A stretch of DNA of 11,170 nt from a virus: the UHGV virus genome UHGV-1780727. One strand, written 5' to 3'. This document shows positions 6,276 through 8,213 of this stretch, in pieces. The position numbers and the translations under genes were made by a program. The notes below the pieces were generated by a model that saw only the letters and a program-made list of their open reading frames with translations, had not been told where the DNA came from and did not search any database. Position 1 is the stretch's first letter, and every line of letters starts with the position of its first letter.

Positions 6276-8213
6276 TCAGCCACCGGACGCAGTTCCGTAG
6301 TTCACACCGGTGATCACCGCCACTGCCGCGGTACGGCGACGACGCCAGTTGATCCAGCGCTCCGCACGGATGGCCACGCTGCCGGTCTGAAACATGGAGA
6401 CCAGTTCCACCGGTGACGGTGTGCTGCTGTCGCTGGTCGGTTCAGACTGCATCTCCAGTGACGCTTCACGGGACATATCCACCGCCACACCGCCGTCATC
6501 AGCCAGATAAATATCCGGTGCATTCACCAGTACCAGCTGGTCACCCACATACTGGGAGACAATCACCGGCAGCCCCTGGAAGGTCCCGCCCAGCAAGGTC
6601 ATGTCCGGATATTCCTTCTGCCCCAGCGCATTTTTACGCATGGACAGCGCCAGGGCATTCGTGCTGGACATCAGCCAGACCGCACCGGTGGGCTGCAGAT
6701 TTGCCGTCACAAACTGGCCAAACGCGGCCTCGGCATCCGCATCCGGGTTACCGGTTGATGCCGTGCCCTTCACATCATGGGTGATGGACGCCGGGGAGAC
6801 ATCCGCCACCGCCGCTTTTTTCGGGTCCACAAAGTCTGTGTCCAGACGCGCCACCACCGCTTCCGCCAGCGCATTACGGACCAGTGCATCAGCAGCCGGA
6901 CTGGAAAAACGGATCAATTCTTCCGTCAGTACCGCAATGGCCGACACTTTCGCATGACTGAAGGTGATGGATTCAAAATCAAACTTCGTCAGGGGTCTGG
7001 CCTTACCCTCACCCACCCAGCCGGCAGCACCACCGGACACCTGGGCATGCACGCGGATATTGAACGGCACCTGACGAAGTGCAGGGATCCCGCCCTGACC
7101 AAATCGCCCGATAATGGTCTGCGGACGCAGGTAATCAATAAAGTCCTGCGCATATTCCTGGTATTCAGACAGGCTGCCTGCCCACTGCGGGTCCGTGGTG
7201 GTCCCTGCCCCCACCGCCGATTTCAGGACATGATGCAGACGGCTGTCATCCGGATACTGACGACGGGCCACTTCCAGGGCTTCAGAGCGGACACCTTTAG
7301 CCGCGGCCAGTGATTTGGCAAAGCGGGCGAAACCAATCCCCTTCTCCAGTTTCTGCTCAACACGGATCACCGGCGCTGAAGCCACCGTGGCCACATTCCC
7401 GTTACCGGCCTGTTTCACCGGCTGTGCCGTGGCGGCCTTACTGGTTTCCAGTTCACGCAGACGCTTCAGGTGCGCATCCACCTGACGGATTTCCGCTGCG
7501 GTGTTGTCGTAGTGCTCTTCCTCTTCCACATCCAGTGTGCGGCCTTCCTCTGCGGCTTTGTTCATGATCTCCTCAAGGGAGGCTGCCAGCGCCGCACGCT
7601 TGTTTTCAAAACTTTTAATCTGTTCACCAGTATTCATTGCTGACTTTTCCTTATGAAAAGAGGTTATTGACTGTGCCGAAGCGCCGGCAGAAGATGCGAT
7701 TTTCACCACCGGTTTCCGGTTGCCGGACGCGGCAGAAAACGGGCGGTCGAAATATTTAATGGTCCGGATGGTGCATTCCGCATTCGCGGGCACGGTGACG
7801 GCAGACACCTCCATCAGCTCCCAGCGCAGAAAATGCAGTCCGCCTCCGTCCAGATAAGTGTATTCATGGGGCCGGAAGCCCACAGAAAGCCCCCTGACCA
7901 GCCCGGTCTTAATGGCAGCCCAGGCCTCATCCAGCCGGGCTGCCATCTGGGAGGGCATCCCCGGCTCCGGCTTCACCAGCATTGCCGTGATTTCCAGCCC
8001 TTCCCTGACCCGACGCACCGTACACTGGCCTACAGGGCGGGAATGGTCATGCTGCCAGAGAAACGGGATCGTACTGCCAAACTCAGCCCCCTCCGGCTCC
8101 AGGATGTCACCATCCCGATCCGGAGAAGGCGTTGACGCAATCCCGGTGATCACCCGTTCATCCTCACTGAAGGATTTCACCGTCAGCAGGGAACAGGCCC
8201 GTTTAAGAGTCAC
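6276..8213 (-). CDS. Fusion protein: HK97-family prohead protease (N-terminal, about aa 1-170), coiled-coil linker, and HK97-family major capsid protein (C-terminal)
   Basis: 645-aa uninterrupted ORF; GTG start at 8213 with AGGAGG RBS 5 nt upstream. N-terminus GIASTPSPDRDGDILEPEGAEF...FLWQHDHSRPVGQ is protease-like; C-terminal half has HK97-type capsid features. Confidence 0.8.
   Translation of the reverse strand: MTLKRACSLLTVKSFSEDERVITGIASTPSPDRDGDILEPEGAEFGSTIPFLWQHDHSRPVGQCTVRRVREGLEITAMLVKPEPGMPSQMAARLDEAWAAIKTGLVRGLSVGFRPHEYTYLDGGGLHFLRWELMEVSAVTVPANAECTIRTIKYFDRPFSAASGNRKPVVKIASSAGASAQSITSFHKEKSAMNTGEQIKSFENKRAALAASLEEIMNKAAEEGRTLDVEEEEHYDNTAAEIRQVDAHLKRLRELETSKAATAQPVKQAGNGNVATVASAPVIRVEQKLEKGIGFARFAKSLAAAKGVRSEALEVARRQYPDDSRLHHVLKSAVGAGTTTDPQWAGSLSEYQEYAQDFIDYLRPQTIIGRFGQGGIPALRQVPFNIRVHAQVSGGAAGWVGEGKARPLTKFDFESITFSHAKVSAIAVLTEELIRFSSPAADALVRNALAEAVVARLDTDFVDPKKAAVADVSPASITHDVKGTASTGNPDADAEAAFGQFVTANLQPTGAVWLMSSTNALALSMRKNALGQKEYPDMTLLGGTFQGLPVIVSQYVGDQLVLVNAPDIYLADDGGVAVDMSREASLEMQSEPTSDSSTPSPVELVSMFQTGSVAIRAERWINWRRRRTAAVAVITGVNYGTASGG

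Follow-up and report, generated by a model that had tools for sequence, protein, structure and literature searches.

The major head gene in a stretch of the virus genome UHGV-1780727 is probably a pair of nested in-frame genes that yield two proteins, a reading to which we assign a probability of roughly three in four. The window, that is, the whole stretch of 11,170 nucleotides (nt) analysed, carries this gene on its minus strand at 6276..8213 as one open reading frame (ORF), in which a prohead protease is joined to an HK97-fold major capsid protein. Initiation at the beginning of the ORF would give a protease-capsid fusion, and initiation at an internal ATG at codon 193 (M193, MNTGEQIK) would give a capsid precursor alone. 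The fusion by itself is ordinary, being already known and annotated; what the comparison of related genes adds is evidence for the internal start, and it is this comparative evidence, not stoichiometry, that argues for it. Coordinates of all features are collected in Table 1.

The long ORF encodes 645 amino acids (aa; 69.4 kDa). An earlier examination of the letters alone, here called the sequence-only reading, had described a GTG start with a strong ribosome-binding site, and this description holds: the GTG at 8213..8211 follows the Shine-Dalgarno (SD) motif AGGAGG at a distance of 5 nt and aligns with the ATG start of relatives. The same reading had placed a protease, a delta-like helical region and a capsid domain in one frame, an architecture that Pfam and TIGR profiles and an AlphaFold2 model recover, with a Foldseek search confirming the capsid fold. 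Among the profiles, Peptidase_S78 (PF04586) matches aa 48-151 with 32.7 bits (cut-off 21), Phage_capsid (PF05065) matches aa 386-635 with 55.5 bits (cut-off 24.2), and major_cap_HK97 (TIGR01554) reaches 80.9 bits (cut-off 27.5), with aa 204-584 aligned to model positions 3-355. Because this last alignment begins at model position 3, the match takes in the N-terminal delta region. PHROG 617, a profile of the fused 'major head protein', covers aa 1-639 on positions 7-626 of 626 (E = 3.8e-259). The protease equivalog TIGR01543 scores 44.1 bits, below its cut-off of 59, and by these scores the protease is classed as a member of the S78 family, below the equivalog level. Membership in NF045541, the NCBIfam family of the 'prohead protease/major capsid protein fusion protein' (scaf_prot_MCP2), was considered and rejected, the score being 52.7 bits against a cut-off of 525 with only aa 49-267 aligned; the type of architecture is alike.

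The AlphaFold2 model, built on 32 relatives, contains a confident protease at aa 18-152, the disordered linker and delta helices listed in Table 1, a second disordered stretch at aa 265-285, and the capsid body from aa 293, which has a predicted local distance difference test score (pLDDT) mostly above 80. A sequence search of the PDB gave a sole and weak match, the Bxb1 capsid, so a fold search was made instead; the top Foldseek matches of the capsid body are the Bxb1, D3 and HK97 capsids (E from 2e-14 to 1e-10). Across 32 diverse relatives (36-53% identity), residues H55, S110 and E135 do not vary, which suggests that they are catalytic and that the protease is active. Candidate positions for the maturation cleavage are near aa 285-292 and near aa 330-337.

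The taxonomic distribution of the fusion indicates that it is real, old and widespread. Many genomes of enterohaemorrhagic Escherichia coli (EHEC) have prophages that match a 2.3-kb stretch around the ORF at 100% identity. Of 5426 complete E. coli genomes, 1252 contain this stretch, in as many as 7 copies each; at a coverage of at least 80% it is present in 1245 of the 5426. Relatives of full length and single frame, at 73-77% identity, occur throughout Enterobacterales, and Gamma- and Alphaproteobacteria and viral contigs of IMG/VR contain homologues at 38-54% identity, the single frame being retained down to about 40% identity. The identical architecture is present in 2447 proteins at E <= 1e-10, and 142 of the 150 most similar cluster representatives at 50% identity, drawn from across Proteobacteria, are fused. 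For analyses of the coding DNA, 105 related loci were reduced to 87 genes with less than 90% mutual identity. Of these, 84 are fused, a fraction that is biased upward and is not a natural frequency, because full-length in-frame matches rank highest in searches. In the fused genes the distance from the conserved PAN motif to the internal start takes 21 distinct lengths (39-73 residues), and the frame is unbroken in all 84. An intact frame through 21 linker lengths, together with the invariant H55, S110 and E135, argues that the long product is under selection. Variants of 600-605 aa in E. coli were considered as alternative forms and rejected, since they are singleton deletion derivatives.

The fusion is also found in viable phages. 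A homologue 95% identical to the window's protein is encoded by phi330, which forms plaques and has a head of 55 nm (PMC12502783); in the mass spectrometry of virions in that study, coverage maps are shown for podophages only (PMC12502783). A more distant homologue, gp03 of Pseudomonas phage PAJU2, is 48% identical over its full length and is annotated as 'prohead protease fused capsid protein'. The presence of the gene in these two phages implies that the fusion works.

The evidence for an internal start comes from the same 87 genes. Every in-frame ATG, GTG and TTG was scored for an upstream duplex with the anti-SD sequence, at a threshold of -4 kcal/mol or stronger. A start codon combined with an SD motif is present in most of the genes at two positions only, codon 1 (90%) and codons 191-193 (92%); the third-ranked position reaches 46%. 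More precisely, 83 of the 84 fused genes have a start codon at the equivalent of M193 (79 ATG, 3 GTG and 1 TTG), and the exception (L024) has AAGGA-7 nt-ATG eight codons upstream of the site. An SD motif lies 5-10 nt ahead of the internal start in all 84 of these non-redundant relatives, within a linker that is otherwise hypervariable, and its median energy is -7.4 kcal/mol, compared with -6.4 kcal/mol at the genes' own starts. At the protein level, Met occupies the site in 129 of the 142 fused cluster representatives, against 0.5% Met in the remaining linker. The other residues are mostly Val, which is encoded by GTG in each of the 11 cases for which DNA was available.

Several features of the site favour translation initiation there, among them signs of selection on nucleotides. 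Enterobacterales have AAGGA as the internal SD, GC-rich hosts typically have GGAGG(G), and GGAG is also found among the relatives; the motif is read in all three codon registers, where it encodes K-E, K-G, Q-E-G, E-E-G, R-R, T-R-S or G-R-G. The persistence of the motif across registers with differing residues argues that nucleotides, not amino acids, are what has been selected. Supporting this interpretation, when the six upstream codons were recoded synonymously the observed SD proved stronger than expected in 78 of 84 genes (mean observed -8.0 kcal/mol, mean expected -5.9 kcal/mol; Wilcoxon p = 2e-14, a value that overstates the significance because the sequences are related). Averaged over the 84 fused relatives, the site falls within the stretch of the gene that is lowest in GC and within one of the two that have the least structure. 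In the window, the 40 nt around ATG 7637 have 35% GC and rank 40th of 625 for weak predicted structure. The second codon after the internal start is AAN in 66 of 84 genes, and in the AlphaFold2 model M193 falls exactly at the border between the disordered linker and the first delta helix. A conserved in-frame start codon and SD inside a longer ORF, beyond what the coding of protein needs, is the mark of nested genes, and it is what these relatives display.

Relatives in which the two genes are separate allow the internal site to be compared directly with a capsid gene start. Snodgrassella encodes a protease of 234 aa and a capsid protein of 439 aa (beginning MTIEEQIN) in separate genes, and the capsid start aligns exactly with M193. 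Two IMG/VR contigs have an in-frame stop just ahead of the same ATG (TAA|ATG in L067 and TAG ATC ATG in L070), a third has an in-frame TGA followed by about 100 nt before it (L074), and in Moraxella phage Mcat2 an ATGA stop-start overlap stands at the same place. Clusters of stand-alone capsid proteins likewise start at query residues 193-197. The fused and split forms are thus about one stop codon apart, which indicates that 7652..7635 is the capsid gene's own translation-initiation region, kept within the fused ORF. By these alignments the capsid gene originally began at ATG 7637, and that start is still conserved. The sequence-only reading had proposed both that this ATG, with its AAGGA, could begin a capsid-only product and that relatives should be compared for the same fusion or for a stop at the junction. 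The comparison favours that proposal on three counts, namely the alignment with split relatives, the conservation in 84 of 84 fused genes and the apparent selection at the nucleotide level; the relatives are mostly fused, and those that are split stop just before the ATG.

Two further observations concern the linker and the split relatives. Short motifs, PVV(K/R)(L/I) and (A/P)GA(S/T)(A/G), recur in the otherwise hypervariable linker, and VVKL-like motifs occur near the C-termini of stand-alone proteases in split relatives (the loci looked at include L026, L028, L067, L070 and L074); these motifs are candidate cleavage or capsid-docking peptides. A permuted arrangement is found in a metagenome-assembled genome of Parasphingorhabdus (L028, 2911..4709), where a capsid gene of 353 aa that lacks the delta domain stands ahead of a protease gene extended at its C-terminal end. 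If this extension acts as a scaffold, the scaffold function may have moved there from the capsid protein to the protease.

On the preferred reading, initiation at GTG 8213 would produce a 69-kDa polyprotein consisting of the S78 protease, the flexible linker, the delta domain and the HK97-fold capsid, and initiation at AAGGA-10 nt-ATG 7637 would produce a 48-kDa capsid precursor of canonical HK97 type, with delta domain and capsid body. Because the delta and capsid parts are common to both, the two products would be expected to build the procapsid together. In the fusion subunits the N-terminal protease would then point into the procapsid, having been brought inside the shell by covalent tethering without a separate targeting signal, and would cut off itself, the linker and the delta domains to leave a mature capsid protein of approximately 35-38 kDa. 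Cleavage of the fusion by its own protease had been offered by the sequence-only reading as an alternative to an internal start; given the invariant H55, S110 and E135 it would instead be an expected further step, and it is not an alternative to the nested start. The E. coli copy combines an upstream GTG and a strong SD with an internal ATG whose SD is weaker and whose surroundings are AT-rich and weakly structured, and with start sites of such mixed strength the ratio of the two products is not predictable.

Some points weigh against this interpretation. Both proteins are known here from sequence alone, and the internal SD of the E. coli copy is modest (AAGGA, -6.2 kcal/mol) in comparison with AGGAGG at the upstream start. 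The outcome of synonymous recoding is non-significant for any single gene (p = 0.40 for the window), the signal being a collective one among phylogenetically related sequences. The K, E and G residues upstream and the M, N and K residues at the site may also add some function at the protein level, and by our own estimate a procapsid made of fusion subunits only is sterically possible. This last point bears on an alternative in which all capsid subunits are made 1:1 as the 69-kDa polyprotein and trim themselves, the internal ATG and SD being an unused relic of a gene boundary. The long ORF is indeed strongly conserved and has a strong SD, the passages describing published fusions treat them as one protein (PMC8508860, PMC7302621, PMC5513430), and 415 extra 21-kDa domains would, by the same estimate, fill under half of the interior of a T=7 prohead. 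Since these domains would still fit, the argument of the sequence-only reading, that capsid protein is needed in far greater numbers than protease and that a fusion alone would give the wrong ratio, is not compelling on its own. A relic, however, is unlikely to have persisted in 84 of 84 genes spanning 40-77% identity within a linker that is otherwise unconserved, and a polyprotein alone would leave unexplained the occurrence of Val only as GTG, the independence of the SD from codon register and its strength above the synonymous expectation. We therefore regard exclusive production of the fusion as improbable.

The conserved Met and the K, E and G residues that precede it could instead be a signal in the protein, such as a point of protease cleavage or docking through which the protease is released from the delta domain. 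Cleavage sites are common in the linkers of polyproteins, the residues ahead of the Met are biased toward K, E and G, and the linker holds other recurrent motifs, PVVK(L/I) and GASG. Such a signal fits poorly, however, with the wide variation of the residues that the SD encodes while the nucleotide motif persists in three registers, with the replacement of Met in the sampled DNA by GTG-encoded Val or TTG-encoded Leu only, and with the fact that translation of the capsid gene in split relatives actually begins at the same Met. It is doubtful as the sole explanation of the site; a cleavage role could coexist with initiation there. There is also the prospect of an artefact or pseudogene, in which a sequencing error or a recent mutation in a decaying prophage has removed the stop between two genes. 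Many EHEC prophages are defective, singleton deletion variants exist, and an identical prophage has its adjoining portal gene marked as frameshifted. The same architecture nevertheless recurs in the 1245 E. coli genomes, the 2447 proteins, 142 of the 150 clusters and viable phages. The sequence-only reading had named a separating stop or frameshift as grounds for abandoning the idea; the recurrence of the single frame speaks against one, and an artefactual origin is so improbable that it can be set aside.

Table 1. Positions of the long ORF, its domains and start signals, and the neighbouring genes, numbered along the window.
Feature	Position	Strand	Remark
HNH endonuclease	10789..11151	minus	
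Small terminase	9935..10498	minus	
Large terminase	8277..9938	minus	
SD of long ORF, AGGAGG	8219..8224	minus	5 nt upstream of GTG 8213..8211
Protease-capsid ORF, 645 aa	6276..8213	minus	
Prohead protease domain, aa 18-152, S78/HK97 family	7758..8162	minus	profiles and AlphaFold2
Linker, aa 153-192, disordered and hypervariable	7638..7757	minus	pLDDT <50
Internal SD-like motif AAGGA	7648..7652	minus	10-nt spacer to ATG 7637
Internal in-frame ATG (M193, MNTGEQIK)	7635..7637	minus	proposed start of capsid-only precursor
Proposed nested product, M193-G645, 453 aa, 48.4 kDa, delta and capsid body	6276..7637	minus	predicted
Delta (scaffolding) domain helices, aa 195-223 and 229-262	7428..7631	minus	AlphaFold2, TIGR01554
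HK97-fold capsid body, aa 293-645	6279..7337	minus	Pfam, AlphaFold2, Foldseek
73-aa ORF	6010..6231	minus	
Portal	4700..6064	minus	
353-aa ORF with repeats	3642..4703	minus	
Head-tail connector	3319..3645	minus	further small ORFs after it

The window as a whole is a phage head module with every gene on the minus strand, more specifically the head module of long-tailed lambdoid prophages of the Shiga-toxin (Stx)/EHEC type. Long-tailed Stx1a-, Stx2a- and Stx2c-converting phages encode a protein, annotated there as 'major head protein' or 'phage prohead protease', to which the 645-aa protein is at least 99% identical, and the Prokaryotic Genome Annotation Pipeline (PGAP) gives the ORF one coding sequence, 'phage major capsid protein' (WP_000173079). 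The small ORFs that follow the connector match in position the head-closure, HK97-gp10-family, tail-completion, major-tail and assembly-chaperone genes annotated in an identical prophage (L001).

The neighbouring genes show further features. The 73-aa ORF between the capsid and portal genes is conserved, belongs to PHROG 829 (E = 8e-39) with function unassigned, and overlaps the portal start by 55 nt; two small ORFs occupy its place in PAJU2. The portal ORF ends in ...AGA AAA TGA, and the 353-aa ORF begins in the -1 frame at an ATG that overlaps this stop (A-ATG-A, junction 4700..4703). The 353-aa ORF carries 2.3 copies of a 162-bp (54-aa) tandem repeat at 4108..4478. In an identical prophage with one extra copy of the repeat, PGAP describes the two ORFs as a single 'frameshifted' portal, and the portal profile PHROG 2271 (859 positions) reaches into the 353-aa ORF. 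A -1 slip on A-AAA ahead of the portal stop could fuse the portal to the 353-aa product. Upstream of the fusion gene, in the 63-nt gap after the large terminase gene and ahead of the SD, a terminator-like hairpin, GAACCGCTGCGGCGGTTT, followed by a T-run is found at 8235..8252 on the minus strand, and a T-run lies directly 5' of the fusion-gene SD in enterobacterial relatives too. This hairpin could attenuate the late operon or affect the stability of the mRNA.

A nested capsid gene inside a protease-capsid fusion was not found described in the literature searched, which did not cover the original PAJU2 and HK97 protease-domain papers; the same literature held no protein data for the window's fusion family, any N-terminal sequencing of PAJU2 lying outside its coverage. 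Roughly one in four of the complete E. coli genomes searched has this head module in Stx-converting and other lambdoid prophages, and many further Proteobacteria have it too. If the nested reading is true, no annotation includes the real major capsid precursor (453 aa from M193), and if it is generally true, standard annotation misses the true major capsid product in thousands of genomes. It would also represent a simple natural answer to the packaging of a maturation protease, by covalent tethering to a subset of the shell subunits, and would supply a rule by which HK97-fold shells could be designed to take up cargo. The split variants, which differ by a single stop codon, provide natural, ready-made controls.

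The closest formal parallels are the in-frame nested head-assembly genes of lambda (C/Nu3) and Mu (I/Z), which are expressed via internal translation initiation. The likeness to lambda C/Nu3 that the sequence-only reading had drawn is apt, because the internal start is by all appearances ancestral, conserved together with its SD and under nucleotide-level selection; in both cases one frame has two initiation sites, the long product includes the protease, and the C-terminal assembly module is made separately as the short product. The systems differ in that the short product of lambda and Mu is a scaffold, with the capsid gene separate, whereas here it would be the capsid precursor with its delta domain, and in that the protease of the window belongs to the S78/HK97 family and theirs to the S49/ClpP type.

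HK97 itself, with gp4 and gp5, shares the protease family (PF04586) and the capsid family (TIGR01554/PF05065) with the window, and in both the N-terminal delta domain of the capsid protein stands in for a separate scaffold. In HK97, however, protease and capsid have a gene each, side by side, and a non-covalent C-terminal targeting segment takes the protease into the prohead; the delta domains lie inside the procapsid. The window has no stop codon between protease and capsid, and its gene order, terminase, protease-capsid, portal, also differs. PAJU2 gp03 is a true homologue with the same gene order and has an internal GGAGGG-6 nt-ATG at M197; its annotation is that of a single protein without a nested product.

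Fusions of protease, scaffold and capsid have been described in Pseudomonas phage MD8 (PMC8508860) and in small actinophages of clusters AN, AM, AU and EE and RRH1 (PMC7302621, PMC5513430). The MD8 protease is described as ClpP-like (PMC8508860), and the small actinophages as sharing little or no sequence similarity among themselves (PMC7302621, PMC5513430). The actinophage fusions are likened to the window's protein by description only, the shared idea being a protease, scaffold and capsid in one gene, and the passages on the MD8 and actinophage fusions leave an internal start unmentioned (PMC8508860, PMC7302621, PMC5513430). In gp07 of Rhodococcus phage RRH1 (L121), GGAAGGAA-9 nt-ATG is found at codon 274 (..SPEGTPA|MNRDQLIA..), at an apparent domain boundary. 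In gp05 of MD8 (L122), AAGGAGGAG-6 nt-ATG is found at codon 185, and this ATG lies within the protease region that its authors place at about aa 15-210 (PMC8508860). As anecdotal single sequences, these in-frame SD-ATG pairs hint that the nested-start arrangement may be general. Whether the protease-capsid fusions of Proteobacterial prophages, and possibly the unrelated actinophage and MD8-like ones, are generally two-product nested genes, in which a minority fusion subunit replaces the protease-targeting signal and the ratio is set by the strengths of two initiation sites, is a proposition for which we see even odds.

An analogy, and an analogy only, may be drawn with the Gag/Gag-Pol system of retroviruses and totiviruses, in which an enzyme is fused to a fraction of the shell subunits and frameshifting or readthrough at the C-terminus determines the ratio. 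In both cases the enzyme would be carried by a fraction of the subunits and the bulk would be without it, but in the window it is alternative initiation, at the N-terminus, that would fix the ratio. If the nested arrangement is generally true, a logic like that of Gag/Gag-Pol would have been reached in these phages by alternative initiation.

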